A stretch of DNA of 33,822 nt from a virus, in IMG/VR virus record IMGVR_UViG_3300003320_000969, positions 1 to 33,822 of that record. The stretch is one strand, 5' to 3'. Made by a program: the position numbers and the translations under genes. This document shows positions 1-33,822 of the stretch, in pieces. How positions within the stretch are numbered: the first letter of the stretch is position 1; every line of letters starts with the position of its first letter. Under the pieces are notes generated by a model, which was given only the letters and a program-made list of their open reading frames with translations, searched no databases and was not told the origin of the DNA.

Positions 1-151
1 GATGTCAATAAGCCTTTAATTATTGACCAAGTCAGAAAAGCATTGGCAACTTCTATTCAATCTAAATATGTTTTAGAAAATATAACGCCGCTGGTTGACC
101 CAAACAATAAAATATATTCCGATCCCGTATCCGTTCGAAATGCTATTGAAG
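1..151. repeat. Left copy of an exact 151-bp terminal direct repeat, identical to 33672-33822. This is an assembly overlap of a circular or circularly permuted molecule with a unique length of 33,671 bp.
   Basis: Compared base by base. The string gatgtcaataagcctttaattattgaccaagtc... at position 1 restarts at 33672 and runs unchanged to the last base of the window. Confidence 0.95.
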
Positions 152-402
152 TATTGAAGACATGGTCTAATGAAAGAGCGAAATTCTTAACCGATGTGGT
201 TAAAAAAGGCGTCGATGTTAATTTTAAACCTTATGAAAATAAATCTAACACCAATACAAAAAATAGCTCAAATTCTTCTGAGCAAAAAATATATTTTTCT
301 CCAATATTGGGAAAAAAAATAACTCAAAAAGATTTAGAACATACCGCTGATCAGAATGGACTTAGTATAGATAAAGTAAAAAGTGATTTTGGAATAGAAT
401 AA
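1..402 (+). CDS. 3' part of the wrap-around gene 32733..33671+1..402 (1341 nt, 446 aa in total). Putative internal virion/ejection protein, P22 gp20-like by size and position.
   Basis: Frame 1 is open from base 1 and is the same frame that is open from the ATG at 32733 to the window end. The TAA stop is at 400-402. The TTG start at 43 in the ORF track is an artefact of linearisation. Confidence 0.75.
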   Translation, partial: DVNKPLIIDQVRKALATSIQSKYVLENITPLVDPNNKIYSDPVSVRNAIEVLKTWSNERAKFLTDVVKKGVDVNFKPYENKSNTNTKNSSNSSEQKIYFSPILGKKITQKDLEHTADQNGLSIDKVKSDFGIE

Positions 403-2198
403 TGGCTATAGATTTATATAAAGAATATGGGATTATGCCTGATAAATCAGAAAAACCAATAGATTTATATGCCGAGTATAATTCGAAACTTAATCCATTA
501 GAACAAATCAAAAAAGATGTACTTAATCGCCAATCTCAAAGTGAACGTATGGGAAAAGACGTTTTAGCAGGCTTAGGAAACTTTGCTATTAATTTGGCTA
601 ATTCTCCTTATAATATTGCAAATGCATTGGCTTCCCATGGGATAATAAATGAAAAAACAGCAAATGCTATCCCTCGTACTTCAAAATATGATTTTAATAA
701 AATACTTGGCATTAATGAACCCAGTTTAAAAGACAAGCTTATACAAGGTGCCGCCCAATATGCCCCTTATGGCATCGGAGGAGAAGCTTTACTAGGTGCT
801 AAATTATTATCCCAAGGAATCCCAGAAGCGTCGCTGGGCGCTCGGTTAGCAAATCAAGCGCTGAGTGGTGGTGCATTTGGATTAACGCAAGAGAAAAGCC
901 CTTTTGCAGGTGCTACTTTAGGAGCTATAACAGCGCCTGTAGGAGAATTAGGCATAGGTGCTATAAAGGGAGGCGTGAGCCATTTAGGTAAGTATGCCGC
1001 AAGTGGATTAAACCAATCGATAGGTAAATCTTTAGAGAACATAAAAAATTTAACTAATCAAGAAGCATTTGATAAAGCTTATGCTAATTATTTAAATAAA
1101 AAAGCCACCGAAAACGCTTTATGGGAACAACTACCCTATCAATCTGCGTTAGTAGATTTAACAGGGACTAAATTTAATAATAACTCTTATAAAGAAGAAT
1201 TGGCAAAAGTATATCGCGATTTATTTAACAAATCTTCACAACAGCCTGCTGAAAAAAGATACAACGAAACATCTTTGTCTTTATTAGATGATTACATAAA
1301 TAAAAGTAAACATAATACTTTTACAAGTGCTTTACAACATTATAAATCTTTAAATAGAGATTTCGAAAATGAACAAGTTTTAGGTAAGAGCCAACCCTTT
1401 AACACTGTTAATTTAGCCAGAAAAAAAATGAAGGAAACTATTCAGAATAATATTAGTAATAATGGATTGAACGATACTATTGGCGAATTGTGGAATGCAG
1501 CAAATAAAGCGACTCAAGAAAAAAATCAATTATTTCACGATTTAATAGGCCAAACTGGTAAAAATAAACACAGTAGCTTTTTGGCCTATACAAAAAATGT
1601 TAACCCTTATGCCGAAAAAGGTAATTTTATTTATGATTATACGCCGAAATCAAGAGCGGAAGGTACTGCTCGAATGCAACAATTTATTAACATGATTGGC
1701 AATGAACAAGAAGGGAAAGACTACTTAAAACATGCTTACTTTAGTGACGCATTAAAAACAAAAGGGATAGATACGAATGAATTTCTAAATAAGTATAATA
1801 AATTAAGCAATGAGCAACAAAAAATATTATTTAATAAAGACGAAATTAAAGATATTAATGCGCTTAATAATATTTTAGAAAAAAATCCAAAAGCTTTGGA
1901 AAAAGATCATTACGCTCAAAGTATTATGAAGCATGTTATTCCTATTGGGATTGGTGGTGCTGTAGGAAGTATATACCATCAACCTATTTTAGGAGCTATG
2001 GCGGGAAGTGCGTTAAACCCAGCATTACATGCTTCAATGGAAGGAATATTTAGTAAACCATCCATTCAACGATTTTACACTAATTATTTCACTGGAGGTA
2101 AATCTCCGGTTTCGGAAATGTTAGCAAATTCATTACGCAGAGGGCTGCCGGCAACTCTATTACCTGCTGAGGAACAAATAATAAATAAAAATGATTAA
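402..2198 (+). CDS. Putative internal virion/ejection protein, 598 aa (P22 gp16-like by size and gene order)
   Basis: Long ORF whose ATG overlaps the upstream stop (TAATG). It has Gly/Ala-rich hydrophobic stretches (GGAFGLTQEKSPFAGATLGAITAPVGELGIGAIKGG and IPIGIGGAVGS). It is the third of three consecutive genes of 233, 446 and 598 aa lying before the tail fibre, as with P22 genes 7, 20 and 16. Confidence 0.55.
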   Translation: MAIDLYKEYGIMPDKSEKPIDLYAEYNSKLNPLEQIKKDVLNRQSQSERMGKDVLAGLGNFAINLANSPYNIANALASHGIINEKTANAIPRTSKYDFNKILGINEPSLKDKLIQGAAQYAPYGIGGEALLGAKLLSQGIPEASLGARLANQALSGGAFGLTQEKSPFAGATLGAITAPVGELGIGAIKGGVSHLGKYAASGLNQSIGKSLENIKNLTNQEAFDKAYANYLNKKATENALWEQLPYQSALVDLTGTKFNNNSYKEELAKVYRDLFNKSSQQPAEKRYNETSLSLLDDYINKSKHNTFTSALQHYKSLNRDFENEQVLGKSQPFNTVNLARKKMKETIQNNISNNGLNDTIGELWNAANKATQEKNQLFHDLIGQTGKNKHSSFLAYTKNVNPYAEKGNFIYDYTPKSRAEGTARMQQFINMIGNEQEGKDYLKHAYFSDALKTKGIDTNEFLNKYNKLSNEQQKILFNKDEIKDINALNNILEKNPKALEKDHYAQSIMKHVIPIGIGGAVGSIYHQPILGAMAGSALNPALHASMEGIFSKPSIQRFYTNYFTGGKSPVSEMLANSLRRGLPATLLPAEEQIINKND

Positions 2199-2255
2199 AC
2201 CATTAAGAAATATTTAATAGTTTAAAAATGACCATTTTGGAAAAGGATTTTAAAA

Positions 2256-4580
2256 ATGGGGCTAAATCCAAATTACATGCTTGCACCAAGCTTGCAAGAA
2301 TATTTTGTCGATAAAGACACCGGACTTCCTTTGGCTGGAGGAAAAGTATATTTTTATGAAGACGACGCAAGAAGTGTGTTAAAGCCAGTTTATGAAATTT
2401 CGGGTACACCGCCCAATTATGTTTATACGGTTTTACCTAACCCAGTAACGCTTACAGCAAATGGGACATTCTCCGATGGATCAGGTAACGATATATTGCC
2501 TTATTATTATCCTTTTGATTCTAGTGGTAATATTCAGCTTTACTATGTAGCTGTCTATAATTCAAACGGTGTATTTCAATTTAGTCGAGAAGGTTGGCCA
2601 AATTTCACTGATGAAGCAGTTAATAGCGATAATGAAGTTACAAATTTTGTACCGAACGGTCAGTTTTTAATTCATAATAATATTCCTGCAACCAGTGCTA
2701 ATGGCAATGTTGTTGGTAAAATTTCTGCAACGACAACAATTCTTGGCGATGGCGGATGGTCATATGTAAGAACGAGTAATACGCCAACCGATATTATTAC
2801 TTTTACTACCTTTACTTCGAGTAATCCAGGATATACTTCTACTCCTCGTTATGCATTGCGTTTTCAATGTCAGGTAGCGAATTCAGATACTCAAAAAGAT
2901 ATAACGTTAACATTCCCAGATGTTAACAAATTTTCATCATCAACTCAGTTATACAACTTATATTTTGAAGCTCAATCTTTAACGGGAGCCGACTTAAATA
3001 ACATCCAAGTTTTGATCATTAAAAATTACGGAACGGGGGGGAGTCCCACTTCTCCTGTCACCATTAATGTTTCATCGGTTGCTTTTTTATCCAACAGTGT
3101 TAGTAAATTTAATGTGCCTTTACTATTCGGAACAAATGCAGGAGCCGTTTTTGGAACAAATAATGATGATACTGTTTCTATTGTTTTAAGATTCCCAGCA
3201 AGTACTACATTTATTGTAGAAATGACCAATTTTGCATTGACTATAAATGACGCCACTTTATCATCGTTTCCTGTTCAAACAAATTCTCAGCAGCTTTATG
3301 CTTCTACGTGTGGTGCAGCTCCTACCCCTGATCCAAATGGACAAAGTATAGGGCTTTACGTTATTTCTACTAACGCGGGCTGGACTTATGATACTGGAGG
3401 AGTTGGAAATATCATTTCTACTATCAATACAACGGCTCCATTTGGATGGCTAAATTGCGATGGAACTCAATATTTAACAACTGGTTATTCGTCGGATGGG
3501 ATCCCTTATTCCAGGCTTCAAGCTAAATTGTGGATAAATTCTATTTCATGTCCGATGTTTGGGACTGGTACTAATTTTGGTACGTCCGTTTTATTGTCGG
3601 ATAATTCTATATTAATAACAACAAATAAAACTGGAAGTGCTACGGCTTCATCTGCAGGAACAACTACTTTTACCGTTTCTACTATTCACACCGGCGGAAA
3701 TTATAATTTAAAAGCTTATGTTGTTGCCTCTAATGCTGTAGAAGTACAATGTAATAGTGTAGGATTTGTTAATGCGCCAACTGCTGGTACTACAGCCTTT
3801 AGCGTCAGTCAATCAGCGGACAATAACAGTGCTACAAAAAATAATTATTCTTTTTCTTTTGCTGCTTTGCCTTCAGCTGGGGAATGGTTTGGTATTAGCA
3901 ACCAATCTACTGATTATTATATATGGTTTAAAGTTGATGGCAGTGGGGCAGATCCAGCGCCTGGCGGAAGAACAGGGATTCTGGTCAGTATAAAATCAAC
4001 TTATAACACAAATGATTTAGCAATCATCTTAGCAAATGTGATTTCTGGCGCCCAGCAAACGAGTATTATTACTGTATCGGGAGCAAGTATTAGCGATAGC
4101 CAATATTTTTCATTTTTTACAAGTACGCCTGCACAGTTCAACCCTTGGTATAATGTTACTGGTTCAGCTACAGCGCCTGCTACCAGTGGTACTAATATTC
4201 AGGTAAATATTACCTCGGGAGATACAGCAGCTCAAGTTGCGAGCAAAACAGTCATTGCAATTAATAACTATTATTTTGCGGTACCCGATTTAAGAGGATA
4301 TTTTATTCGTGGATGGAACAATGGTTCGAGCGAAGATCCAAATGCAAGCTCACGATTGCCACTTAATAAAGTTAGCTATTTTGGTGATTTAGTAGGAACA
4401 TTAGAGTTTAACACCTATACGGCCCACGTTCACTCTAGTGTGGGTTCTAATACGCAAACCGCAACCTCTACTAATTTTCAATACACTAATAGTTCTGGAA
4501 GTAATGTTTTAACTTCTGTTGCCGGTTATGCGGAGACACGTCCAGATAATATTTCATTGAATTACATTATCAAATATTAA
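2256..4580 (+). CDS. Tail fibre / receptor-binding protein, 774 aa, with tail-collar motifs
   Basis: AAAGGA RBS upstream. The tail-collar (PF07484-type) signatures APFGWLNCDGTQY (about aa 397) and FAVPDLRGYFIRGW (about aa 677) are present. Composition is Ser/Thr/Asn/Gly-rich and beta-like. The N-terminus PLAGGKVYFYEDDARSVLKPVYE is typical of fibre/spike N-termini. Confidence 0.8.
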   Translation: MGLNPNYMLAPSLQEYFVDKDTGLPLAGGKVYFYEDDARSVLKPVYEISGTPPNYVYTVLPNPVTLTANGTFSDGSGNDILPYYYPFDSSGNIQLYYVAVYNSNGVFQFSREGWPNFTDEAVNSDNEVTNFVPNGQFLIHNNIPATSANGNVVGKISATTTILGDGGWSYVRTSNTPTDIITFTTFTSSNPGYTSTPRYALRFQCQVANSDTQKDITLTFPDVNKFSSSTQLYNLYFEAQSLTGADLNNIQVLIIKNYGTGGSPTSPVTINVSSVAFLSNSVSKFNVPLLFGTNAGAVFGTNNDDTVSIVLRFPASTTFIVEMTNFALTINDATLSSFPVQTNSQQLYASTCGAAPTPDPNGQSIGLYVISTNAGWTYDTGGVGNIISTINTTAPFGWLNCDGTQYLTTGYSSDGIPYSRLQAKLWINSISCPMFGTGTNFGTSVLLSDNSILITTNKTGSATASSAGTTTFTVSTIHTGGNYNLKAYVVASNAVEVQCNSVGFVNAPTAGTTAFSVSQSADNNSATKNNYSFSFAALPSAGEWFGISNQSTDYYIWFKVDGSGADPAPGGRTGILVSIKSTYNTNDLAIILANVISGAQQTSIITVSGASISDSQYFSFFTSTPAQFNPWYNVTGSATAPATSGTNIQVNITSGDTAAQVASKTVIAINNYYFAVPDLRGYFIRGWNNGSSEDPNASSRLPLNKVSYFGDLVGTLEFNTYTAHVHSSVGSNTQTATSTNFQYTNSSGSNVLTSVAGYAETRPDNISLNYIIKY

Positions 4581-5000: not shown

Positions 5001-5047
5001 TTAGTTGCTAATTAAAGATATCGTTAATATTTAATTAAGGAAAAAAT

Positions 5048-5209
5048 ATGAATTTATTAATAGAAATGACTATAGAAAAAGTTGTTGAATATATCATCCA
5101 ACAAATTATTGAACGATATGGGCACAATATTATTTCTGCCGATCAAATCGAAAAATTAGTTTCTGCGTTTGCTCAAGAAATAAGCACAGAACTTCAAAAG
5201 AAGCAATAG
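5048..5209 (+). CDS. Small hypothetical protein, 53 aa, below the ORF-track size cutoff
   Basis: Hand translation gives MNLLIEMTIEKVVEYIIQQIIERYGHNIISADQIEKLVSAFAQEISTELQKKQ. An AAGGA RBS lies 8 nt upstream and the TAG stop is at 5207-5209. Confidence 0.5.
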   Translation: MNLLIEMTIEKVVEYIIQQIIERYGHNIISADQIEKLVSAFAQEISTELQKKQ

Positions 5210-5236
5210 AAATATTAATCCATAAGGAATAACCAT

Positions 5237-5383
5237 ATGCCATTAGTAAAAGGTAAAAAAGCACGTACCCGTAAAGGCTTTGCAGAAAATATTGAAAGAG
5301 AAATGGCAGCAGGAAAGCCACAAAAACAGGCTGTAGCCATTGCGTATTCAGAAGCAAGAAGTTCTAAAAAGAAGAAAAAATAA
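5237..5383 (+). CDS. Small basic protein, 48 aa, resembling the short conserved phage/bacterial family with the motif GKP.KQAVAIA.SEA
   Basis: Hand translation gives MPLVKGKKARTRKGFAENIEREMAAGKPQKQAVAIAYSEARSSKKKKK. An AAGGAA RBS is upstream and the TAA stop is at 5381-5383. It lies antisense to track ORF 5130..5357, which I consider spurious. Confidence 0.55.
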   Translation: MPLVKGKKARTRKGFAENIEREMAAGKPQKQAVAIAYSEARSSKKKKK

Positions 5384-5413
5384 CTATTATCTTACGTAAT
5401 CCATAAAAAAATA

Positions 5414-5429
5414 GCGCCCCGAAGGGCGC
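5414..5429. terminator. Bidirectional rho-independent terminator between converging transcription units
   Basis: GCGCCC (5414-5419), loop CGAA, GGGCGC (5424-5429). An A-run lies upstream on the + strand, which is a T-run after the hairpin on the - strand. The hairpin sits between the + gene ending at 5383 and the - gene ending at 5530. Confidence 0.7.
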
Positions 5430-5529
5430 AAATAATGGATAGTCGCAAAATACGCCGAGAAGGCGTTAAATTTTATTCTAGCCTTTAAAATCAATTAGTC
5501 AATAAAATTGACTATCTATTTAGCTTTAC

Positions 5530-5766
5530 TTATTTCTTTTTATGGGCAGATTTTGCTTTGTGATGAGGACCTTTATGATGCGGTTCTTTTTCTGCTCGTT
5601 TAGCATGTTCCATATATTTCATCGCTTCATGATGATGATGGGCAGCTTTTTCCATATGCTTTTCATGGTGATGTGCCGCTTTTTCATGATGATGAGCAGC
5701 TTTTTTAATATGGTGCTCAGCTTTTTTGTGGTGAGCAGCTTTATGATGTTCAGTTTTGGTTTTCAT
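5530..5766 (-). CDS. Histidine-rich basic protein, 78 aa with 23 His, containing repeated KAAHHH(H)E units. Putative metal-binding protein.
   Basis: Sequence is MKTKTEHHKAAHHKKAEHHIKKAAHHHEKAAHHHEKHMEKAAHHHHEAMKYMEHAKRAEKEPHHKGPHHKAKSAHKKK. An AAGGA RBS lies about 10 nt upstream. There is no signal peptide or TM segment, and the gene is followed by the 5414-5429 terminator. Confidence 0.7.
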   Translation of the reverse strand: MKTKTEHHKAAHHKKAEHHIKKAAHHHEKAAHHHEKHMEKAAHHHHEAMKYMEHAKRAEKEPHHKGPHHKAKSAHKKK

Positions 5767-5794
5767 AAGATTAATTCCTTTTAAATGAATTTAA

Positions 5795-6949
5795 TTAAGA
5801 GGTGAAATAGAACCCGCTTACAGTAATATCAGTTGTAGAACTAATATTGGTAATTGCCATTGTGGTGGAAGCCGCCGAAGAATTGGCATTTTCTAAAATA
5901 TTTAGATAAGTTTGCCCATGGGCTACACGACCTACAATGAATAAAGTGCTTGCATCAATAGTACAATTTTGCACCAATGCAGATCCAACTGAATCAAGCG
6001 CCGTTGTATTTACAGATGCAACTGGCAATCCGGTGATTTGCAATTGCCCACTTGCCGCACCGATTGTAAGTGCAGTTAATATTAAACGTCCATAATAATA
6101 TACAACGTTTCCTATGCGGGTATATTCACCTACTTGAAACGAATAAGTCACCGAAGTTGGATTCGCGCTTGAACCTGCCAAAGCGGGAGTCCAAGTGCCA
6201 GTGACATAGGTGCTTAAAACACTTCCGCCAAAAGTTATGCTTGTCGCAGTAGCAGCACCAAGAGTCGGGGTTACCAAAGTAGGAGAAGTAGAATTAACTG
6301 GAACGCCTGTTCCTGTAGGCGTTGTCCAAGTTCCTAATGCGGAGGCACCTCCTGACACATACATTTGTCCGGAAGTTCCAGTACCGGCATTTTGGAAATT
6401 ACCTGTGGCAGTTGTTCCACCTGCAAGCAGTCCATAAGCGGTTGTTGTAGAAAGGCCGGTACCGCCATTTGGAACTGTTAGTGGAAGGGTAGTAGTGCTT
6501 GCAATCGTAATTGAACCGGCACCATTACTGACTGATATTCCCGTACCACCGGTTAATGTTGCCGCGACAGGGGAAGCGCCTGTTGAACCGACTACCAATT
6601 GGCCGTTTGTTAAAGGACCTTTCCACGTTGGGACGCCGGCAGATGTTGTTGTCAATACAGCGCTATTGACACTTGGCGGCAAAACATCGGCAGATACTGC
6701 TAAAGTAATTACACCATTTGAAAAAGAGGGAAGAAATACGTTATAAGTCCCAACAGTTGCAGGCGGATTGTATCCATAATACATATCGATAATATCAGTT
6801 GGATTAATGGTATATCCTAACAAATTACCTGAATTTAAATATCCGGCGGCGGTTACTGTTGCTAAATTATCTGTAGAAATGATTTTTAATCTACGGGGTT
6901 CGTCACCGATTTGACCTGGCACATCGGTGGTAATACTTACGATAGACAT
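5795..6949 (-). CDS. Second tail-fibre-like protein, 384 aa
   Basis: Gly/Thr/Ser-rich, with the fibre-type motif LPLTVPNGGTGLSTTTAYGLLAGG followed by GTGTSGQMYVSGGASALGTWTTP. It has its own AAGGA RBS and is oriented opposite to the main structural operon. Confidence 0.7.
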   Translation of the reverse strand: MSIVSITTDVPGQIGDEPRRLKIISTDNLATVTAAGYLNSGNLLGYTINPTDIIDMYYGYNPPATVGTYNVFLPSFSNGVITLAVSADVLPPSVNSAVLTTTSAGVPTWKGPLTNGQLVVGSTGASPVAATLTGGTGISVSNGAGSITIASTTTLPLTVPNGGTGLSTTTAYGLLAGGTTATGNFQNAGTGTSGQMYVSGGASALGTWTTPTGTGVPVNSTSPTLVTPTLGAATATSITFGGSVLSTYVTGTWTPALAGSSANPTSVTYSFQVGEYTRIGNVVYYYGRLILTALTIGAASGQLQITGLPVASVNTTALDSVGSALVQNCTIDASTLFIVGRVAHGQTYLNILENANSSAASTTMAITNISSTTDITVSGFYFTS

Positions 6950-7087
6950 TCCTTGTCATCCTTTTAAGTAATTAAATGAAAGTTTTCATATTTAAATGAA
7001 GGCGATCATTATTTCCTATCCCGAGTATAACATAAATAGAAAAAAAATAAACAGTATAGAAATGCGAAAATATAGAGATGGTAGTAA

Positions 7088-7112
7088 TAAAAAAAGCAGC
7101 CCAAAGGCTGCT
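7088..7112 (-). terminator. Rho-independent terminator of the leftward early operon
   Basis: On the - strand, AGCAGCC / loop TTTG / GGCTGCT is followed by a run of 7 T. This lies 72 nt downstream of the SSB-like gene stop. Confidence 0.75.
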
Positions 7113-7183
7113 TTCGAGGTAGTCATTTTGCATGATTTGAGATTTCTCTCTATTTGTAGAAAATTTTATCTTTTTGGGTTTAT

Positions 7184-7615
7184 TCAAAAAGGCAAGTCAT
7201 CATCTACAAAGGCGCTATTATCTTTAGTTTGAGTATTAAAGTCTAGAGAAATTTTAATATAATCTGCGATTTTGTTTCTAGCAGGGTAATCACCGCTTCT
7301 TTCTACGCCAATTTTACATTTCCCAGTTTTTTTCTCACAATCAAAAGGTGATAAATTTCCTGCATTATATTGCTTTTGTAGATTTGTTGAATCACAAAAT
7401 TTTTTTATCTTATAAAGCGCAGAAGGCACAAGATAGTCATTTAAATATATTTCTTTTCCTGTTTTATCGTATATTTTATTGGTGAGCTTTATCATGGGAT
7501 TTCCAGTTGATTTAGAGATGGCATTTTCTGCTTTAACAACTTCAAAATCATATATCCCTGGATCCAATAGGTTAAGTAACTCAGTGTCCGATTTAGGGGT
7601 AAAAATTAAGTTCAT
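7184..7615 (-). CDS. DUF669-type single-stranded DNA-binding protein with a canonical acidic SSB C-terminal tip
   Basis: The C-terminus is ...AFVDDDLPF (compare E. coli SSB DDDIPF). The gene lies immediately downstream of a Sak4-like ATPase, as DUF669 genes typically do. I chose the ATG at 7615 (MNLIFTPKSD...) because a perfect AAGGAG sits 7 nt upstream; the track start at 7636 is a TTG. Confidence 0.7.
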   Translation of the reverse strand: MNLIFTPKSDTELLNLLDPGIYDFEVVKAENAISKSTGNPMIKLTNKIYDKTGKEIYLNDYLVPSALYKIKKFCDSTNLQKQYNAGNLSPFDCEKKTGKCKIGVERSGDYPARNKIADYIKISLDFNTQTKDNSAFVDDDLPF

Positions 7616-7671
7616 AGGTCTTCTCCTTGGTTTCAAATAGATTTTGGCATACTTGATATACTGACTTATTA

Positions 7672-8523: not shown

Positions 8524-8623
8524 AATTTACCTCATACATTTACTACGTTTACAATAATGCTCATTTAAGAGCTTCCTAACAAATCCCTATTAGGCACTCT
8601 TTCGAATGCCCAGTAGGCATGTG

Positions 8624-9482: not shown

Positions 9483-9534
9483 GCAATGACTCCTGTTTTA
9501 GTATTAAATAATGTATTTTAAGTTAATTGAAATT

Positions 9535-9563
9535 AATTTACTATATTTTACAAATTACGTCAA
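9535..9563 (-). promoter_or_regulatory. Predicted sigma70-type leftward early promoter
   Basis: On the - strand: TTGACG (+ coordinates 9563-9558), 17-nt spacer, TAAATT (9540-9535). It lies upstream of 9201..9482. Confidence 0.5.
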
Positions 9564-21484: not shown

Positions 21485-21488
21485 ATTA

Positions 21489-25195: not shown

Positions 25196-25283
25196 TCAGT
25201 GTCCTTGTTATAGTTTATATTATTTCATATTAAAAAATATTAATTACTAATATTAAATATTATTAATTAATACAAATTAATAA

Positions 25284-25581: not shown

Positions 25582-26277
25582 ATGGAAAATGTTGAAGGGA
25601 TGCAGCCGGATCAAGATATTTCTGCATCAATTTCTACGCAGCCACAAGTTGCGCAAGAAAAGATGATCCCCCAATCTGAAGTTGACCGTTTGGTTGGCGC
25701 TAAAAAGCATGAAGCTTATGAGCGTGGGCGACGTGAAGCATTAGAAAGACTTCAAGCTGAGCAAGCACCTAGAGCACCTATTCAAGAAACTCAGAACACA
25801 TTCGGTGGAATGCCGCAATTTTCTGAAGATAGAATACGTGATCTAATTGCGGAAGAAGCGCATAAGCGTGCTCAAGATGAAATGGGGAAGCGTATTGTCG
25901 ACGATTTTGTTGGCAAAATGCAATTAGGCCCGCAGAAATATAATGATTTCGAAAAAACCATTTCGGGAATGAATTTACCTTCGATTCCCCACATAGTGCA
26001 GCTGACGCAAGCCCAGGACAATACAGCAGATTTGATGTACCATCTTGGGAAAAACCCAAGTAAATTGGCTACATTTTTAACGCTTGCTTATGCTAACCCT
26101 GAGCTTGCGAATGCTGAAATGCGTGCGTTGTCTCAATCATTGAAACAAAATGAGTTTGGCGCGCGAGTCCCTAATATCAACGAACCACTAAGCCAATTAA
26201 GTCCTTCATCTACTTTAGGGATGGACAGTGGCTCGGAATTATCTAGCTTTAAAAAACAACCGTGGGCTCGGATATAG
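25582..26277 (+). CDS. Scaffolding protein, 231 aa
   Basis: It lies immediately upstream of the coat gene. It is highly charged and helical (EVDRLVGAKKHEAYERGRREALERLQAEQ), and its size is typical of scaffolds. Confidence 0.6.
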   Translation: MENVEGMQPDQDISASISTQPQVAQEKMIPQSEVDRLVGAKKHEAYERGRREALERLQAEQAPRAPIQETQNTFGGMPQFSEDRIRDLIAEEAHKRAQDEMGKRIVDDFVGKMQLGPQKYNDFEKTISGMNLPSIPHIVQLTQAQDNTADLMYHLGKNPSKLATFLTLAYANPELANAEMRALSQSLKQNEFGARVPNINEPLSQLSPSSTLGMDSGSELSSFKKQPWARI

Positions 26278-26367
26278 CCAGCGAGTGTGAGTTAGGTTTG
26301 TTATTTTTATTGAAAGCCATTGCTTCCATAAAAGGATTTTACCAAAAGGATTTTGGGAGCATTGACA

Positions 26368-27702
26368 ATGGCTTTACCTACCAATATTTTAACGCAGGTT
26401 CAAACGTATAACCGAGGCGGTCTTGCGCTACTTAATAACATCAATTGCTTTGTTGCAATTGCAAATAAAAAATTTAAAAACTTTAATGAAATTGAAGCTA
26501 ACTTAGGCTCAGTTGTGAACTTTGATGTGCCTCCAAAGTTTTCATCGGGATACGGGCTTGTTGCTTCATTCCAAGCCGGCGTTCAACGCTTGCAACCTTT
26601 GTCTTGTGACCAAGCTGCTAACGTAGCATTAGATTTTACCGCTCAAGAAAGAATCTTTAATGTCGATAAACCCATGGGGATCGGCAATTACATGGAAACT
26701 TTTGGTAAGGCTGCTATTGCTCAGTTGGGTGCTTTAATAGAGGGTAACATTGCATTAAATTGTAATTCTTCTGTGCCTATCACTACTGTTGTAAACGGGC
26801 AAACAGTTCCGACCGGTGCGTTGCATACTGAATCTGGCCCATGGCGTTTCTTTGGTAATGGCACGAGCCCAATCAATTCTTATACCCAATTAGCGCAAAT
26901 GATTTCAAATTTTAAAGATTTCGGCTCGGTAATTCATGGTATTAAAGTTATTATTCCAAATACCGTTGAGCCGCAAATCGTTGGAACAGGATTGAACCAA
27001 TTTGTTCCGCGTCGAAACGACGAGATTGCTAAATCTTGGGAAGTCGGTGAATTTGGTTATCCGCCAGTCCAATATTATATTTCCAACATGTTGCCTATTC
27101 AAGTAGCCGGAACCTGTGGTAACAGCAAACAGTTATTAACGGTTGTGAGCACAAATGACCCTAGCGGTAATGCGATTACTCAAATTACTTTTAGCGGTGC
27201 TACCATTAATGATGCTAATGCGGTCAAAGCTGGAGACGTTTTCCAATTCAATGACAACGTTTCTGGTCAGCCCAATTTGCGTTTATTAACCTACTACGGA
27301 CAAGTCCCAACTGCACAACCTGTTCAATTCCGTGCAACGGCTAATGCTGCTGCTGATGGTTCTGGTAATGTGGTTGTTAGCGTTCTACCGACATTGTCTG
27401 TCAATAATGTGCAAAACATTTTGATCAACAACAACATCGTAGCGGGTATGCAAGGATATTTTGCACCTACTCATCGTTGCGGGTTAGTTATTGGTGGGGA
27501 TTCTTTCTATTTAGCAATGCCAAAATTACCGAATCAAAGTCCGTTTACGACCGCTAGTGAAACCGACCCAGAAACTGGTGTTTCATTACGTTTGACGACT
27601 GGTGCATTGCTTGGACAAAACCAAAACGCAACTATTCATGATAGCGTTTGGGGTTCAACCATTGTCCCAGATTATTGCATGAGAATTTTGTTCCCTGTGT
27701 AA
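26368..27702 (+). CDS. Major capsid (coat) protein, P22 gp5-like, 444 aa
   Basis: The gene lies after the scaffold and its size is close to that of P22 coat. It is followed by a terminator hairpin, as is common for highly expressed coat genes. The ATG at 26368 has GGGAG 7 nt upstream and is preferred over the TTG at 26353. Confidence 0.7.
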   Translation: MALPTNILTQVQTYNRGGLALLNNINCFVAIANKKFKNFNEIEANLGSVVNFDVPPKFSSGYGLVASFQAGVQRLQPLSCDQAANVALDFTAQERIFNVDKPMGIGNYMETFGKAAIAQLGALIEGNIALNCNSSVPITTVVNGQTVPTGALHTESGPWRFFGNGTSPINSYTQLAQMISNFKDFGSVIHGIKVIIPNTVEPQIVGTGLNQFVPRRNDEIAKSWEVGEFGYPPVQYYISNMLPIQVAGTCGNSKQLLTVVSTNDPSGNAITQITFSGATINDANAVKAGDVFQFNDNVSGQPNLRLLTYYGQVPTAQPVQFRATANAAADGSGNVVVSVLPTLSVNNVQNILINNNIVAGMQGYFAPTHRCGLVIGGDSFYLAMPKLPNQSPFTTASETDPETGVSLRLTTGALLGQNQNATIHDSVWGSTIVPDYCMRILFPV

Positions 27703-27799: not shown

Positions 27800-28609
27800 A
27801 TGAGTCAGTTAGATCCAATTGTTTTTAACCCTAATCTGTATGCTACCGGTTGTATTGTTAGAAATAATGCGACCACCCCAAATACTAAATTAACCATTAC
27901 TCCTGGCGTTGTAAGAGATATTAATAATGTTATTGATATGAATCTTGGAAATTTTCAAGGCCAAGGAAATCAGGCAATTACTGCTAATTCTAATACTGTC
28001 TTAGATGCAACGGTTAATGGTGCTAATGGATTAGATACAGGTACTTTGGCTGCAAGCACCCCTTATGCAGTTTGTGTTATTGGTGATTCAAGGAATTTAA
28101 TGCCAACTGCAACATTACTTGTAAAATCGCTTGCTAGTGGAGCAGTATTGCCCGCGGGGTATGATTCTTTTAGAATTGTTGGAGCGATGTATACCGACGC
28201 ATCTGCTCATTTTATTTTAGGGTATTGGAGCGGATTTGCTAGTTGGCGTATGTTTATGTATGACGCTCCACAGGCGACATCTGTAACGGCAGGTAACGCA
28301 ACTTCTTATACTGCTGTAGATATCACTTCTTTAGTTGCTCCAGGAGGCGGTGCAGACAATAAATTTAACGTTCTTATTATGACTGCATTAACGCCTTCTG
28401 CTGCTGGCCGTGGTGTTTTCTTGCGTGGAGATGGTGCTACAGGCGATCAGGTCGTCAATTTAGGCCAAGTTACTTCTGTTGTTCTCAATAGTTATAACTG
28501 GGTATCTGCAACATTAGTTGCTGGTGTTTCCACAAAAATTAATTACAAAGTTAGCAATGCTTCCGATGCTGTGGCAATCAATGTTGCTGGGTACATGGTG
28601 GGTATTTAA
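27800..28609 (+). CDS. Virion-associated protein, paralog A, 269 aa; function unknown (decoration, fibre or tail accessory candidate)
   Basis: It is a tandem paralog of 28641..29444. Shared blocks are NN.TTPNTK..I.PG..RD, NLGNF.G.G, NG.NGLD.GTL, YAV..IGDS, P.GYD, TDASAHF, GNAT.YT..D, KINYKV.N.SD.V.I and AG. AAAGGAA RBS upstream. Confidence 0.7.
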   Translation: MSQLDPIVFNPNLYATGCIVRNNATTPNTKLTITPGVVRDINNVIDMNLGNFQGQGNQAITANSNTVLDATVNGANGLDTGTLAASTPYAVCVIGDSRNLMPTATLLVKSLASGAVLPAGYDSFRIVGAMYTDASAHFILGYWSGFASWRMFMYDAPQATSVTAGNATSYTAVDITSLVAPGGGADNKFNVLIMTALTPSAAGRGVFLRGDGATGDQVVNLGQVTSVVLNSYNWVSATLVAGVSTKINYKVSNASDAVAINVAGYMVGI

Positions 28610-28640
28610 TTTTAATGTCTGCTTAGAGTAAGGAAATGAT

Positions 28641-29444
28641 ATGGCTGTTTTTAGCGAATTAGTTACACCGCCCGCACTTACTCTAAGCGGATTGTTCATT
28701 TCTAATAATCCCACGACGCCGAATACAAAAATAAATATTTGGCCTGGTATAGCAAGAGATTTTTATAATCGTGTTCTCATTAATTTAGGAAATTTTTTAG
28801 GAGAAGGTACGCCTACAGTATCTCCTAACTCTACAACTGTTATTGATGTGACAAAAAATGGGATCAATGGCTTAGATCAAGGTACTTTACAACCCAATAC
28901 TGTTTATGCAGTAAGCGCAATTGGAGATTCTACAGGTCGAAATCCGGCAGCTGCAATTTGTTGTAAAGAAGTGAATGACCCTGTAATGCCTTATGGTTAT
29001 GATTGCGTTGCGGCATTAGGGGTAATGATAACTGACGCAAGCGCGCATTTTTTGCCTTGTTATTATCTTGGCGTCTATGATCGTACATTTTTTTATGCCA
29101 CCCCTCAGCCAACTTCCGTTATTAATGGAAACGCGACTACTTATACTTCTATTGATTTATCATCTTTAATCTGGTTAGCCCTATCAGGCGCTAATATTTA
29201 TGTACGTATAGAGTACACACCTGCATCTGCGGGTAATTCGGTATATTTACAGCCGAATGGTTCATCATCCGACATGATTGTTATTCCCGGACCGGTCGCA
29301 GGACAAAAAATTGTTAATTATGTATGGATGCCATCTACGCAAGATGTTCCTGGCTTTGGTGTTCCTAAAATTAATTACAAAGTGACAAATGGTTCAGATT
29401 CAGTATCGATCTATATTGCTGGATTTAAGTCTATTACATTTTAG
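28641..29444 (+). CDS. Virion-associated protein, paralog B, 267 aa
   Basis: See 27800..28609. By eye about 35-40% of residues are identical along the full length. AAGGAA RBS upstream. Confidence 0.7.
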   Translation: MAVFSELVTPPALTLSGLFISNNPTTPNTKINIWPGIARDFYNRVLINLGNFLGEGTPTVSPNSTTVIDVTKNGINGLDQGTLQPNTVYAVSAIGDSTGRNPAAAICCKEVNDPVMPYGYDCVAALGVMITDASAHFLPCYYLGVYDRTFFYATPQPTSVINGNATTYTSIDLSSLIWLALSGANIYVRIEYTPASAGNSVYLQPNGSSSDMIVIPGPVAGQKIVNYVWMPSTQDVPGFGVPKINYKVTNGSDSVSIYIAGFKSITF

Positions 29445-29478: not shown

Positions 29479-30183
29479 ATGGCCTATACAACAACGCAGC
29501 TCATTACCAATTCATTTTATCTTTCCCAAATTGTTAGCCGCGATTTACAAACTGTAAGCGGCGCACAATTACAAGATGGGTTAGATATGCTCAATGCATT
29601 GTTGAATGTAAAATCTGCGCATTCACGATTAATTCCCTATTACCAAGAATATCAGTTTAATGCTGTGCCAAACCAGGAGACTTATTTCGTTCCTAATTTG
29701 GTAGTTGCAGAAACATTGACATTTAACATTGGCCCTGTTCGCTATTCGATGTCGCCAATGAGTCGTAAGCCTTATCAAGGCTCAGGACGTGTCGATAATA
29801 TCGCATCTCTTCCCTTTAACTGGCATTTTGAACGTGGGAAAGGCGGCGGCACTATCTGGCTATACTTCCTTCCTAATACAAATTACCCAATGACTTTATG
29901 GGGTAAATTTGGGTTTACCAATGTTACTTTGGGGCAAGATTTAACTACGGTTTTCGATTTATTTTATATTGATTATTTACGTTATCGATTAGCACAACGT
30001 ATTTGTTCCGAATATGGAATTAATATGAGCCCACAAGCTGAACAAGAATTACGGATATTAGAATCGGAAGTGACCGATGTATCGCCTGCTGATTTGAGTT
30101 TGAATAAGTGTTCATCTTTGGGCGCTACCAGCGGACTAAACTGGGGCGATATAAATATTGGTAGGGGCTATCGTCCAATGTAA
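29479..30183 (+). CDS. Putative head-to-tail adaptor / tail tubular protein A-like protein, 234 aa
   Basis: The call is positional: the gene lies directly upstream of the gp10-like tail-hub gene, with an AAGGA RBS. The overall pattern (N-terminal helical LDMLNALL, central Y..P, C-terminal Y.LA..I..EYG) resembles podovirus adaptor proteins as I recall them. Confidence 0.4.
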   Translation: MAYTTTQLITNSFYLSQIVSRDLQTVSGAQLQDGLDMLNALLNVKSAHSRLIPYYQEYQFNAVPNQETYFVPNLVVAETLTFNIGPVRYSMSPMSRKPYQGSGRVDNIASLPFNWHFERGKGGGTIWLYFLPNTNYPMTLWGKFGFTNVTLGQDLTTVFDLFYIDYLRYRLAQRICSEYGINMSPQAEQELRILESEVTDVSPADLSLNKCSSLGATSGLNWGDINIGRGYRPM

Positions 30184-30214: not shown

Positions 30215-31648
30215 GTGCTAATGAAAAAGCTTCAACCTCAAAATTTCATTGATATGCCCCTTAATATTGTTGGATCTTCTACTTTTGGGCGTTATCCCAA
30301 AATTTCCGTAGAAAGAACTTATAATATGATTATATCCGATGGATTTTTAGTGGATTATGCTGGATATAAAAAAGTAGCTACTATAGGGCCCACTGAGCAA
30401 GGAAGAGGCATTTATACCAGCATTCGTTATAATCATATGATTGTTGTAATTGGGAACAATGTGTATGCCGTTGCTTCCAATTTAAATGTTTCATTGATTG
30501 GAACGATCAATACTTTTACAGGGGATGTATTTATTGATGAAAACAATAATAACCAGATTGCGATCTGTGATAAACAAAAATTATATATTTACAATTATTC
30601 TGCGTCTACTTTTCAACAGGTCACTCTGGATTTTACTCCTGGTTATATTAGTTTTCAGGATGGCCGATTTATTGCAGCAGATGTAGGAAATGCTATCTGG
30701 CGCTTGTCGGATGTTGGAAATGGGACAAGTTGGCCTAACGATTCAGCACATGTTGGAACGCTACAAACAAAACCTGATCAAGTGGTCGCTGCGCAAAGAT
30801 TTCCAGGAAGAGGAAATTTGCTTTACGTGTTCGGTCAAACTGTTACGGAATCGTGGCAAGATGTCGGATATCAGCTTTTCCCTTATCAACGCTCTGCGAC
30901 TTTCAACTTAGATTACGGTTGTTTAAATCCAGCAACAATTGCTTATAACGAAAATATTATTGTTTGGTTGTCGGCAAACGAAAAGTCAGGTCCCGCAATT
31001 ATGTTTTCTACGGGTACGGATTTACAACGAATATCCACAGATGGTATCGATTTTGAATTTGCTCAGCTCACGACGCCTACAGATTCTTATGGATTTTTAT
31101 TTAGACAAGACGGTCATTTAATTTATCAAATTACATTTCCCACTGATAATGTCAGTTATATTTATGATTTTAATACCAAGCAGTTTTTTAATGTATGTGA
31201 TACGCATATGAATGCCCATATCGCTAAACGCATTGCTTTTTTCAATGACAATTATTATTTTGTTTCGCTTATAGACGGAAATCTGTACCAAATGAGTACT
31301 AATTATACCGATTTTGATGGCCAAGAAATGCCGCGTATTAGAGTATGTCGAAATATTAGATTGCCAGACACTTCACGATTTAATGTCAATAAAATAACAT
31401 TTACCATCGGACAGGGAACGCAGCCTACAGATACTACTATTCCACAAGCAGTAGATTTATCTATTTCTGTGAATGGTGGGCAAAGTTTTAGTAATATTTT
31501 TAGACAGCAATTAAATCCATATGGGCAGTACGCCAATCGTTTAATTTATTGGCGATTGGGAAATGCAAATGATTTTGTTGCGCAGTTTAGATTTTGGGGA
31601 TTAGGAAGATTTGTTGCTACGGATGGTGTGGCAACTATTTATCAATAG
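30215..31648 (+). CDS. Tail hub / packaged-DNA stabilisation protein, P22 gp10-like, 477 aa
   Basis: The size is close to the roughly 472 aa of P22 gp10. The N-terminus is NFIDMPLNIVGSSTFGRYPKISVERTYNMIISDG and the C-terminus is DLSISVNGGQSF...RLIYWRLGNANDFVAQFRFWG, which parallels gp10 (LSATTDGINYG...VLWKRVGRIRRLIGFKLRV) as recalled. The start is GTG 30215 or ATG 30221. Confidence 0.5.
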   Translation: MLMKKLQPQNFIDMPLNIVGSSTFGRYPKISVERTYNMIISDGFLVDYAGYKKVATIGPTEQGRGIYTSIRYNHMIVVIGNNVYAVASNLNVSLIGTINTFTGDVFIDENNNNQIAICDKQKLYIYNYSASTFQQVTLDFTPGYISFQDGRFIAADVGNAIWRLSDVGNGTSWPNDSAHVGTLQTKPDQVVAAQRFPGRGNLLYVFGQTVTESWQDVGYQLFPYQRSATFNLDYGCLNPATIAYNENIIVWLSANEKSGPAIMFSTGTDLQRISTDGIDFEFAQLTTPTDSYGFLFRQDGHLIYQITFPTDNVSYIYDFNTKQFFNVCDTHMNAHIAKRIAFFNDNYYFVSLIDGNLYQMSTNYTDFDGQEMPRIRVCRNIRLPDTSRFNVNKITFTIGQGTQPTDTTIPQAVDLSISVNGGQSFSNIFRQQLNPYGQYANRLIYWRLGNANDFVAQFRFWGLGRFVATDGVATIYQ

Positions 31649-31660: not shown

Positions 31661-31948
31661 ATGATCATACCTAATTTTGAATATACAAAACTGGTTGATG
31701 AAAACGGATATTTAACGCCGCAATGGCAATCTATCTTTCAGCAATTAATTACTGCATTGCAAACCAATTTATCGGATGAAGGATTTTTGCCGCCGCAGCA
31801 GCCTACGACAAACATCGCAACATTACAAACGAGATTTAATGCATCTAGTGCGCCGAGTAATTATTTCGGTGACTTAATTTACGATAGTACAACTGATGAA
31901 TTAAAAGTGAATATTGCAGGAACATTTAAAGTTGTGCAAGTCGTATAA
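31661..31948 (+). CDS. Small virion-module protein, 95 aa
   Basis: ORF in the structural operon with an AAGGA-like RBS. Function unknown. Confidence 0.6.
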   Translation: MIIPNFEYTKLVDENGYLTPQWQSIFQQLITALQTNLSDEGFLPPQQPTTNIATLQTRFNASSAPSNYFGDLIYDSTTDELKVNIAGTFKVVQVV

Positions 31949-32021
31949 ATGATATACAAGTCATAGTATATAGCTGTAGAATTGTATATAATGGATAAAA
32001 CATGTTTAAAGGATTAAACAT

Positions 32022-32723
32022 ATGGATTATGCATCTTATATTCCTGGAGCTAGCGGGATAGCTGGCGGATTGTTTGGATTATTTGGCGGCGGCAGTAAAG
32101 ACCCATCGAAAGCTGCTTCTCCTTATTTCCAGCAAATTCCAAATGCAATATCGCCTTACTATTCTCCATTTATTAATGCGGGAATAGGCATTCAGCCGCA
32201 TCTTCAAGATCAATATGCTGATTTATTAAATCAATACGGCGGTCAATTATCCAGCAATTATTCTACATTAGTGAATAATCCATCAGATGTTTATAATAAA
32301 ATTGCAGGGCAATATCAACAATCTCCTGGATATAAATTTCAATATGACCAAGCGATGAATGCGGCCAATAATGCGGCTGCTTCGGGGGGAATGGCGGGCT
32401 CTCCTCAGCATCAACAACAAGCGGCTACTCTTGCACAGAATTTAGCAAGTCAAGATTTCAATAATTATTTATCTAAGGCTTTAGGACTATACGGAACTGG
32501 CCTTGAAGGTGAGCATCAATTATTTGGCACCGGCTTACAAGGATATCAAAATATTTATAATCAAGGTATTGGTGCCGCAAATTCAATGGCCGAACAAATT
32601 GCTCAAGCATTGGCAGCGCAAGGTTCACTTGCTTATGCTGGACAAGCAAATAAAAACCAAGCGCAAGGTTCTGCTTTAGGAACATTGCTTGGTGGGATCG
32701 GTTCTTTATTTGGAATTAAATAA
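32022..32723 (+). CDS. Putative internal virion/ejection protein, 233 aa (P22 gp7-like by size and position)
   Basis: It has Gly-rich hydrophobic termini (GIAGGLFGLFGGG and LGTLLGGIGSLFG) and a Gln/Ala/Asn-rich core (SPGYKFQYDQAMNAANNAAASGGMAGSP). It is the first of three ejection-protein-sized genes. Confidence 0.5.
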   Translation: MDYASYIPGASGIAGGLFGLFGGGSKDPSKAASPYFQQIPNAISPYYSPFINAGIGIQPHLQDQYADLLNQYGGQLSSNYSTLVNNPSDVYNKIAGQYQQSPGYKFQYDQAMNAANNAAASGGMAGSPQHQQQAATLAQNLASQDFNNYLSKALGLYGTGLEGEHQLFGTGLQGYQNIYNQGIGAANSMAEQIAQALAAQGSLAYAGQANKNQAQGSALGTLLGGIGSLFGIK

Positions 32724-32732
32724 GGAATAAAT

Positions 32733-33822
32733 ATGGCATTTACAGTACCGCAGTTTCCATTATTAACTCCAGCACAAGCTAATCCATATGGTGGTTTATT
32801 CGATTCTATTATTGATGCTTATTCTAAAAGTTTAAGTGCTCGTTATTTACCTGAAACGTTAAAACAATCCTTATTACAAACACAATTAGCTAATCAAAAG
32901 TCTCAAGCTGAACTGCCTTATGCTGCTGATTTAGCAAGAGCCAATGCAGCTTCTCGATTAGCATATGCAAATTATATGCTTGGACCGAATGCCGCTTTAA
33001 AAGGACTAAGCCCCCTTGCGCAAAATCTAGTAGAGCCTTATGCAGTTCCTGCTATACAAAAACAAATTACCGCGCGAGCAAATCAGTTACAACAATCAGG
33101 AGGAGATATTGTCAATACTTTATATCCTTCTGTTCAACAAAGTATTTCTCCGCAAACGGATAATATATCTGAAAATACCAACCCCACTAATGTTCCTCCT
33201 AGAACAATGCACGGCGGATTACCATTGGGTAAATATAGTTCTTTAAGTCAAGACGAACAACGCGGATTAGTTGACCAAGCAGTTGCTTTTGGATACACCC
33301 CTCAACAAGCCGTTGCTTCTTTTAGGAGTGGCGCTGATATATCGCAACTTGCAAAAAATGCTGGTTATAGCGATCAATCGAAATGGCCTGCTCCGGTTTC
33401 ATCTGCTTCTACCGATAATGTTTCTAGCGCTAATCCAGATAATATTAAACAATTGTATGAAGCAAAAATACAAAAAATAACGAGTGACCCAAAAATTAGA
33501 TCACAAGCAATTGAATCACAATTATTAGCAAAGGATATAAACAAAATAAATGTAAAACCATTAGAGGCATTCAGCGGGTTATCAGGAAAAGGAGAGCTTT
33601 TAAAAAATCAATGGAAACAAGCACTTGGTCTGGAACCATCGAAAGAATATAGAGAGTATCAAAAATTTATAGATGTCAATAAGCCTTTAATTATTGACCA
33701 AGTCAGAAAAGCATTGGCAACTTCTATTCAATCTAAATATGTTTTAGAAAATATAACGCCGCTGGTTGACCCAAACAATAAAATATATTCCGATCCCGTA
33801 TCCGTTCGAAATGCTATTGAAG
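32733..33822 (+). CDS. 5' part of the wrap-around gene (continues at base 152 after the overlap is removed; full gene 32733..33671+1..402, 446 aa). Putative ejection protein, gp20-like by size and position.
   Basis: The ATG at 32733 has an AAGGAA RBS. I translated the frame by hand and found it open to the last base of the window. It is missing from the ORF track because no stop lies inside the window. Track ORFs 33040..33246 and 33271..33480 are in other frames of this gene. Confidence 0.75.
   Translation, partial: MAFTVPQFPLLTPAQANPYGGLFDSIIDAYSKSLSARYLPETLKQSLLQTQLANQKSQAELPYAADLARANAASRLAYANYMLGPNAALKGLSPLAQNLVEPYAVPAIQKQITARANQLQQSGGDIVNTLYPSVQQSISPQTDNISENTNPTNVPPRTMHGGLPLGKYSSLSQDEQRGLVDQAVAFGYTPQQAVASFRSGADISQLAKNAGYSDQSKWPAPVSSASTDNVSSANPDNIKQLYEAKIQKITSDPKIRSQAIESQLLAKDINKINVKPLEAFSGLSGKGELLKNQWKQALGLEPSKEYREYQKFIDVNKPLIIDQVRKALATSIQSKYVLENITPLVDPNNKIYSDPVSVRNAIE
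33672..33822. repeat. Right copy of the 151-bp terminal direct repeat (identical to 1-151)
   Basis: See the feature at 1-151. Confidence 0.95.

Follow-up and report, generated by a model that had tools for sequence, protein, structure and literature searches.

A circular P22/Sf6-type podophage genome with a partition cassette: a candidate phage-plasmid from a lineage linked to Legionellales-like intracellular bacteria

How might a short-tailed phage in which no recombinase can be recognised be kept by its host? The question is raised by IMG/VR virus record IMGVR_UViG_3300003320_000969, of which we analysed the whole stretch, positions 1 to 33,822 (33,822 nucleotides (nt); hereafter the window). 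Virion genes of P22/Sf6 type are found here alongside a ParA ATPase with a small partner gene, a RelBE module, a primase-helicase pair and an iteron array. On balance we think it probable, though only just, that the window is a plasmid prophage (phage-plasmid) of a temperate P22/Sf6-type podophage.

The first 151 nt of the window (1..151) match the last 151 (33672-33822) exactly, leaving a non-redundant unit of 33,671 bp with a GC content of 34.8%. A 446-amino-acid (aa) open reading frame (ORF) that starts at 32733 runs across the 33671/1 junction and ends at 402. Because the junction lies inside this ORF, the molecule is a circle or is circularly permuted, rather than bounded by a physical terminal repeat. 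This bears out a preliminary description of the window, made from the letters alone, which had taken the 151-bp overlap to close a whole 33,671-bp replicon. Headful-packaged phages likewise assemble as circles, so closure alone cannot separate a plasmid from a headful-packaged phage. The gene map settled at 46 genes occupying 88% of the sequence, and neither a tRNA scan nor an Rfam scan of the window gave matches.

The genes and sites that would matter most for maintenance are the following.

18372-19142, minus strand: ParA, 256 aa (AAA_31 1e-43; phrog_164 1.6e-52; best NCBIfam match NF041546)
18094-18384, minus strand: basic partner protein, 96 aa, overlapping the 3' end of parA by 13 nt
19145-19576, minus strand: 143-aa ORF, first gene of the predicted partition operon
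19577-19735, no strand: divergent promoter region, rich in AT, holding two imperfect direct repeats of 33 nt (19613-19685)
20453-20677, plus strand: RelB-like ribbon-helix-helix antitoxin (NF048017 87.5 bits, cut-off 50; PF01402)
20664-20927, plus strand: RelE/ParE toxin (TIGR02385, RelE/StbE, 31 bits, cut-off 27.9; PF05016 7e-10)
10609-11505, plus strand: Toprim primase (PF13362; phrog_2249 3e-50)
11568-13100, plus strand: DUF3987/YfjI-type helicase (PF13148 9e-65; phrog_2373)
13436-14395, no strand: origin-like non-coding region of 960 bp, with TGTCGCA iterons around an AT-rich core
9637-9891, plus strand: Cro/CI-type helix-turn-helix (HTH) regulator, 84 aa (PF01381 24.3 bits, cut-off 23; HTH_31)

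ParA carries the Walker A motif KGGVGKT at residues 10-16, and its AAA_31 match spans residues 1-175. A small deviant-Walker ParA with no N-terminal HTH, followed by a small partner gene, fits the type Ib (ParF/ParG-like) layout, and on these features we class the protein as a predicted small type Ib-like partition ATPase. The partner is homologous to 85-104-aa genes that follow parA in 10 related loci. The imperfect repeats in 19577-19735 are a candidate centromere or operator. A search with ParA returned 2,141 homologs; the best non-self matches were 41-55% identical, and many lay on 34-45 kb contigs. Against 5.8 billion clustered proteins, the only match above 55% identity was the window's own protein. 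The closest ParA genes on plasmids are partition genes, at 41% identity in Rickettsia felis pRF and 38% in Megaira plasmids. A defence-system explanation of ParA and its neighbours was also tried and rejected, PADLOC having given no matches.

The relB gene lies upstream of relE and the two overlap by 14 nt. The nearest plasmid-borne homologs of the helicase are found mostly on Legionella plasmids. In the origin-like region, 10 of the 11 window copies of TGTCGCA fall within 13534-13938, in both orientations, flanking an 80-bp AT-rich core (13781-13860); 2.8 copies would be expected in the window and none of 100 shuffles reached 11. The preliminary description had already picked out the ParA ATPase with its overlapping partner, the RelBE addiction module, the primase and helicase-like proteins and the iteron array. 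All of these stand, on the domain match, Walker motif and 13-nt overlap, on two scores above their cut-offs and the 14-nt overlap, on the Toprim and DUF3987 families, and on the ten clustered motif copies, respectively. Missing from its list was the 84-aa HTH gene, which sits at the divergent early-region junction (9483-9636) and is homologous to an HTH_3 gene of a related locus, L047 (L numbers denote related loci throughout). This gene overlaps a spurious 115-aa ORF on the minus strand.

Scans of the gene-map ORFs with Pfam-A and PHROGs gave zero matches to an integrase, resolvase, transposase or protelomerase. Moreover, a tyrosine-recombinase hidden Markov model (HMM) made from 15 recombinases of related loci, and Coxiella XerL, were compared with all six-frame ORFs of at least 30 aa and returned only noise (best E 0.035). 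The earlier statement that the element shows no recombinase, transposase or protelomerase thus holds for the gene map and, as regards tyrosine recombinases, for the six-frame ORFs as well.

The virion, packaging and lysis genes are listed next.

21489-23630, minus strand: portal, 713 aa (PF16510 P22_portal, 1.1e-85)
23678-25195, minus strand: terL (phrog_38 1e-85)
19947-20408, plus strand: terS (weak phrog_51; its homologs are the terS genes of L016, L020 and L044)
25582-26277, plus strand: scaffold (phrog_8865)
26353-27702, plus strand: major capsid (coat) protein of Sf6/P22 type (phrog_283; PDB Sf6 gp5 2.5e-6)
27800-28609 and 28641-29444, plus strand: tandem paralogs of 269 and 267 aa, directly 3' of the coat gene
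29479-30183, plus strand: adaptor-position protein, named by position
30215-31648, plus strand: gp10-like tail hub, 477 aa (phrog_578 1.5e-51)
31661..33822, the last one running to 402, plus strand: proteins of 95, 233 and 446 aa, ejection/internal by position (syntenic homologs in relatives)
402-2198, plus strand: 598-aa protein, internal virion/ejection by position (same-position homolog in L016)
2256-4580, plus strand: tail fibre, 774 aa, with a collar-type C-terminus (phrog_1800/327; weak PF07484)
5795-6949, minus strand: second fibre protein, 384 aa (phrog_31660; 53-55% identical to L044 and L047)
14799-15362, plus strand: GH108 endolysin with PG_binding_3 (PF05838, PF09374, phrog_315)

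A profile of the window portal and its relatives matched the Sf6 portal (5e-23) and the P22 portal (2e-9) in the PDB. In a phage database the portal found matches of 25% identity or less, and by that measure the phage is far from any sequenced phage. A phmmer search of the PDB with the coat protein gave 2.5e-6 for two Sf6 gp5 chains, 7sp4 and 5l35, and 0.0027 for 6mpo, the I-domain entry. The hub hit 9vyg, a 'stabilization protein', at 3e-5, as well as 7eeq, with 'needle head protein' among the chain names; these matches support the 477-aa protein as a putative P22 gp10-type hub. The adaptor-position protein had no match in the PDB sequence search, and the 598-, 95-, 233- and 446-aa proteins had no family match in the Pfam and PHROGs scans. 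The 774-aa fibre is 42-59% identical to the fibres of L016, L020, L028 and L037. No tailspike was found by Pfam or PHROGs, collar-type fibres being present instead, and nothing among the window genes resembles a tail tube, sheath or tape measure. With portal, terL, terS, scaffold, major capsid protein, hub, fibres and endolysin the set is complete, and a short-tailed P22/Sf6-type particle is well supported as the predicted virion. Accordingly, the likeness of portal, coat and hub to P22 gp1, gp5 and gp10 that the preliminary description had put up for checking is seen in PDB sequence and profile matches to the Sf6/P22 portals, Sf6 gp5 and a stabilization protein. Its P22-type morphogenesis set was matched for portal, coat, hub, terminase and scaffold; its P22-type gene order was not, the terL-portal block being inverted.

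What is known of the lineage comes from portal-based scans, which recovered 15 loci in IMG/VR and 28 loci in species-representative genomes, sharing the structural module at 30-60% identity. Among these relatives are many contigs of 32-41 kb that were binned to Aquirickettsiella, Coxiellaceae or Legionella; isolates, namely Legionella maceachernii ATCC 35300 and Rickettsiella massiliensis 20B, supplied two. The L. maceachernii copy (L037) is intact on a 98-kb contig, with the prophage terS abutted by a hybrid sensor-kinase gene (5003-8321). Because it abuts this host gene the copy is integrated, and the lineage is therefore temperate. A further relative, L020, carries an integrase of its own (PF00589, 1.7e-31). 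We infer an uncultured host for the window, most likely either an intracellular member of the gammaproteobacterial order Legionellales or some comparable low-GC symbiont.

L044 and L046-L053, which are contigs of 27-45 kb from independent samples, also have the ParA-partner cassette, with 38-55% identity. All of the ParA contexts examined (L044, L046, L047 and L048/49, with L050-L053 from IMG/VR) belong to the same phage lineage: they have P22_portal, a terL 41-69% and a major capsid protein 42-58% identical to those of the window, and a homolog of the 85-104-aa partner directly after parA. Since the cassette recurs in related phages of independent samples, it is a function that resides in these phages under selection, rather than the product of a chimeric assembly. 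Nor is the window a lone case, as at least 8 related P22-portal contigs of 27-45 kb have the cassette. Furthermore, in L046 and L048-L053 a conserved repA-like gene of 313-354 aa stands back-to-back with parA (e.g. L046 8840-9781, L048 8335-9315), with a weak IncFII_repA match in L048/L049 only. By its arrangement this pair of genes is a predicted plasmid-style rep-par unit. No tyrosine recombinase was found within the 7-21 kb around parA in L044, L046, L047 or L049-L053, and the 245-aa tyrosine recombinase of L048 is the sole such case among the ParA-bearing relatives.

Under the plasmid reading, the genome would circularise after infection, and its lytic genes would be silenced by the 84-aa HTH regulator or by another repressor that escaped recognition. 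Low-copy replication would start at the iteron/AT-rich origin, fired by the primase/DUF3987 helicase pair encoded next to it; daughter cells would receive their copies through the small Walker-type ParA and the 96-aa basic partner acting on some centromere, and RelE would kill cells losing the element. On induction, a headful terminase would package the DNA, which would account for the assembly closing as a circle. We favour this reading because the unit is circular and complete, has the full range of virion, packaging and lysis genes, and shows no recombinase in the gene-map or six-frame ORFs, and because it combines ParA and its partner with RelBE, a primase-helicase pair and iterons. It is favoured also by the conservation of the cassette among relatives, with the repA-like neighbour in one sub-clade and, save in L048, no tyrosine recombinase near parA; by plasmid homologs of ParA that are themselves partition genes; by the temperate character of the lineage (L037 integrated, L020 with an integrase); and by the failure of ParA or its neighbours to match a defence system.

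Several observations weigh on the other side. Lysogeny and episomal maintenance are deduced from genes, and the earlier suggestion of lysogeny as a low-copy plasmid is partly supported, by the gene content and the sub-clade cassette. The partner had no match in Pfam or NCBIfam and only noise in a PDB profile search, and its single-sequence AlphaFold model is all-helical with a low pLDDT of 64. Among the 122 non-structural ORFs beside portals, in about 20 kb read per relative contig, there were 2 integrases, 2 resolvases and 2 ParA-like genes. Megablast of 25 kb of the window against PLSDB found nothing, and tblastn of the portal against 72,556 PLSDB plasmids found no relative of the virion module, so there is no cultured example of a plasmid state. 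Of the remaining points, two concern what was not seen: no CI-sized repressor was recognised, the only regulator found being Cro-sized (84 aa), and near the par genes no centromere was identified, the AT-rich repeats of 19577-19735 being the only candidates. Moreover, a purely lytic origin would account equally well for iterons next to a primase-helicase gene.

These last three points also speak for the alternative that survives best, namely a virulent, or at most pseudolysogenic, phage. During a prolonged or carrier infection, replicating phage DNA would then be positioned or segregated by ParA and its partner, RelBE would serve inter-phage competition or counter-defence, and there would be no stable plasmid prophage. 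In addition, none of the ParA matches listed from the 5.8 billion clustered proteins comes from a named cultured isolate, so that no lysogen is known. However, ParA with a small partner and a type II toxin-antitoxin (TA) system is the canonical toolkit of a low-copy plasmid, and in sister phages the cassette is paired with a repA-like gene. The lineage also includes the integrated L037 and the integrase-bearing L020, and many relatives are binned with bacterial metagenome-assembled genomes. We therefore hold a virulent or pseudolysogenic life to be unlikely, while rating it the most probable competitor of the plasmid prophage.

Slightly less probable, in our view, is that the phage is temperate and integrates via a host-encoded recombinase, with ParA used only in a transient episomal phase; the recombinase would be XerL acting at dif, as for Legionella phage LME-1, or XerCD, as for other integrative mobile elements exploiting Xer (IMEX). 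The preliminary description did not consider this route, which would account for needing no integrase and for which there is a precedent. LME-1, the sole Legionella phage isolated so far, is an integrase-less podophage that host XerL integrates at dif via a 22-nt mimic, AAGTCTGATTATTTTGATAATC, with attP lying within repO (PMC5071653, PMC9765430, PMC12407071). Host-recombinase integration has been proven for this phage (PMC9765430).

For the XerL-dif scans we used an arm pattern validated on the dif site of the Coxiella QpH1 plasmid, which adjoins xerL. Strong LME-1-like mimics were present in two relatives. That of L038, ACTAAGTCTGATTA-TTACAG-TAACCAGACTTAGT (6575-6612), lies in a convergent intergenic gap and has mismatches at 1/18 arm positions; that of L004, CACTAAGTCTGATTA-TCACAA-TAACCGGAC (2500-2535), lies inside a RepO-like HTH ORF and has 2 arm mismatches. 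Two or fewer arm mismatches were reached by 1/100 shuffles of the window. Both sites are near-palindromic, and the placement of the L004 site in a RepO-like ORF is as in LME-1. These mimics suggest Xer-dependent integration in a second phage lineage, one of P22 type.

In the window itself, the best match to the XerL-dif arms had 5/18 mismatches, which is shuffle level, the arms being those of Legionella and Coxiella and possibly not those of the host. Short-arm matches numbered 17 against 18 expected, and all arm definitions tried, including the L038/L004 and Coxiella plasmid variants, stayed at chance level. The XerCD-dif consensus gave a single match with 3 mismatches, equalled in 18% of shuffles. 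A dif mimic in the window was therefore rejected both for the Legionella/Coxiella XerL arms and for the XerCD consensus. Moreover, no ParA was seen in the region read of L004 or of L038, whereas the window has one; a dif mimic and ParA look like alternative solutions to one problem. Integration by a host recombinase becomes less probable with these results, within the limit that the dif sites compared (Legionella, Coxiella and XerCD) may not resemble that of the true host.

The two isolate genomes were examined in the same light. In L. maceachernii, a 421-aa recombinase (1540-2805) 5 kb from the prophage was considered as a phage integrase and rejected, being the host XerL ortholog (9e-127 to Coxiella CBUA0010). 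No dif-like site was found at the prophage border in the 22 kb examined. The R. massiliensis contig NZ_AJGC01000004 (45.6 kb; L040/L042) bears two separate portal fragments together with a ParA-like gene of 345 aa; it may be what is left of a phage-plasmid, or else a prophage in decay. A site on it shares 14 nt (CTGATTATTTTGAT) with Legionella dif, an identity that speaks for the host-recombinase route.

One peculiarity of the window bears on the integrity of the assembly.

21275-25195, minus strand: inverted block of terL, portal and a 77-aa DUF6582 protein (21275-21508), so named from its strand relative to relatives

The window has terS and the scaffold-coat genes on the plus strand and this block on the minus strand. 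Some 40 related loci keep terS-terL-portal-scaffold-coat together on a single strand, in that order; the window is the sole exception and so lacks the P22-like collinear order. The divergent spacer between terL and the scaffold gene is 386 bp long and AT-rich, with a promoter-like TTGACA-N17-TATAAA at ~25339, and at the borders of the block there are no long inverted repeats, only short AT-rich chance repeats. That the window is an artefact, whether a phage and a small plasmid wrongly joined in assembly or a defective element no longer making virions, with the inversion as a sign of misassembly or decay, could draw on this singular orientation and on the GC content, which is 0.28-0.34 in the non-structural half (7000-21000) against 0.35-0.44 in the structural half, but it is very improbable given the same ParA cassette within related phage genomes of many independent samples, structural ORFs that are all of full length, block borders free of long inverted repeats, the divergent promoter-like region and the exact closure of the contig. 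The terL/scaffold spacer (25260-25283) and the origin core (13795-13821) contain perfect AT-rich palindromes, whose arms measure 9-10 bp and whose spacers measure 6-7 bp. They may be operator or origin elements and are unlike the dif sites already described.

If the plasmid reading is correct, a wider picture comes into view, which we put forward as possible rather than probable. Podophages of P22/Sf6 type that infect Legionellales-like intracellular bacteria would form an undescribed lineage, with the window as its first complete member in plasmid mode. Across this lineage a single virion module would go with any of three exchangeable means of prophage maintenance: an integrase (L020), hijack of XerL/dif (L004, L038), or ParA and its partner with a repA-like or primase-helicase replicon (window, L044, L046-L053). 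A comparable pattern has been described elsewhere: Dedrick et al. (2016) reportedly found that in Cluster A mycobacteriophages parABS replaces the integrase, some members integrating and others persisting as plasmids. Those phages infect Actinobacteria, are siphoviruses and use a ParB/parS-type system; the relatives studied here suggest the same choice of integrase or partition.

How does the window compare with known phage-plasmids? Tailed examples are mostly sipho- or myoviruses with few Podoviridae, among which the F116 community is cited (Pfeifer et al. 2021, PMC7969092). The P1, N15 and SSU5 groups share with the window a full phage gene set combined with partition, addiction and autonomous replication, and lack an integrase (PMC7969092). 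They are, however, 50-110 kb myo- and siphoviruses of cultured hosts, whereas the window is a P22-type podovirus of 33.7 kb. P1 has a type Ia ParA/ParB system and Cre-lox, and N15 a protelomerase; the window has a type Ib-like ParA, no dimer-resolution recombinase and no PLSDB match. Closer in virion type are the F116 community (PMC7969092) and crAssphage Carjivirus communis, which has been proposed as a phage-plasmid (PMC11652158). These are short-tailed, and extrachromosomal persistence has been proposed or shown for them. crAssphage relies on repL and members of the F116 community are typed IncFIB; no sequence relationship of either to the window was found, portal matches in the phage database being at most 25% identical. 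In a glacial virome, the G10 group comprises circular scaffolds of ~37-38 kb with ParA and/or ParB, TA and terminase genes, regarded as putative phage-plasmids (Bellas et al. 2015, PMC4490671). Its size class and gene logic are like those of the ParA clade here, on a comparison by description only, and some G10 members carry integrases. The preliminary description had called a P22-architecture phage-plasmid unusual, which is fair; it is not unprecedented (PMC7969092, PMC11652158, PMC4490671). We find it credible that the element represents an undescribed lineage of a kind, podovirus phage-plasmids, that is rare but already known, and so no new category.

LME-1 resembles the window in being integrase-less, about 30 kb, short-tailed and temperate with a Legionellales host (PMC12407071, PMC9765430), probably like that of the window. 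The order of the genes for the major capsid protein, an extra capsid protein, the adaptor and the nozzle is also similar. LME-1 nevertheless has a T7-like structure and uses XerL/dif; in the window, portal and coat are of P22/Sf6 type, no dif mimic was found, and ParA/partner with RelBE is present instead. Kinship of the two was considered and rejected, as PDB sequence searches of window proteins returned no chain labelled Legionella or LME-1. With P22 and Sf6 the window shares the PF16510 portal, an Sf6-type coat with an I-domain, a gp10-like hub and a headful-type terminase, as well as the order scaffold, coat, adaptor, hub, ejection proteins and receptor-binding proteins. It differs from them in its very low identity, its collar-domain fibres in place of the gp9 tailspike, the inverted terL-portal block, duplicated extra capsid genes, and in having neither a lambdoid early region nor an integrase.

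Phage-plasmids transfer genes both as viruses and as plasmids. Should the wider picture of one lineage with three maintenance modules be right, this lifestyle would be common among phages of obligate or facultative intracellular bacteria. The curated catalogue of phage-plasmids consists mostly of large myo- and siphoviruses of cultured enterobacteria with few podoviruses, and a compact P22-type example would broaden both their morphological and their ecological range. The clade recurs in many metagenomes and is linked to bins of Legionella, Aquirickettsiella, Coxiellaceae and Rickettsiella. LME-1 is the only phage so far isolated from this host group. Members of the clade would amount to a natural experiment in which maintenance modules (integrase, Xer hijack, partition) are swapped on one virion chassis. 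As long as neither a host nor a lysogen is at hand, the practical value stays modest.

Lastly, we note the remaining features of the window.

19736 onwards, plus strand: zinc-ribbon/AT-hook protein, 72 aa, upstream of terS
7672-8523, minus strand: AAA_24/Sak4-like ATPase, recombination (PF13479 2e-21; phrog_124)
7184-7636, minus strand: DUF669-like protein, recombination
14396-14773, plus strand: VRR-NUC nuclease (PF08774)

The tandem paralogs of 269 and 267 aa (27800-29444) have no family assignment, and after the major capsid protein gene the relatives have one homologous copy or none; from their position they are possible capsid-decoration proteins. That position matches the novel head-decoration gene of LME-1. 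Between the fibre genes lies a 78-aa His-/Lys-rich ORF with AAHHK-type repeats (5530-5766, minus strand), which has no family match. Three paralogs of 89-96 aa are encoded at 16077-16367, 16405-16695 and 17283-17552, all on the minus strand, the first two being 74% identical in DNA.

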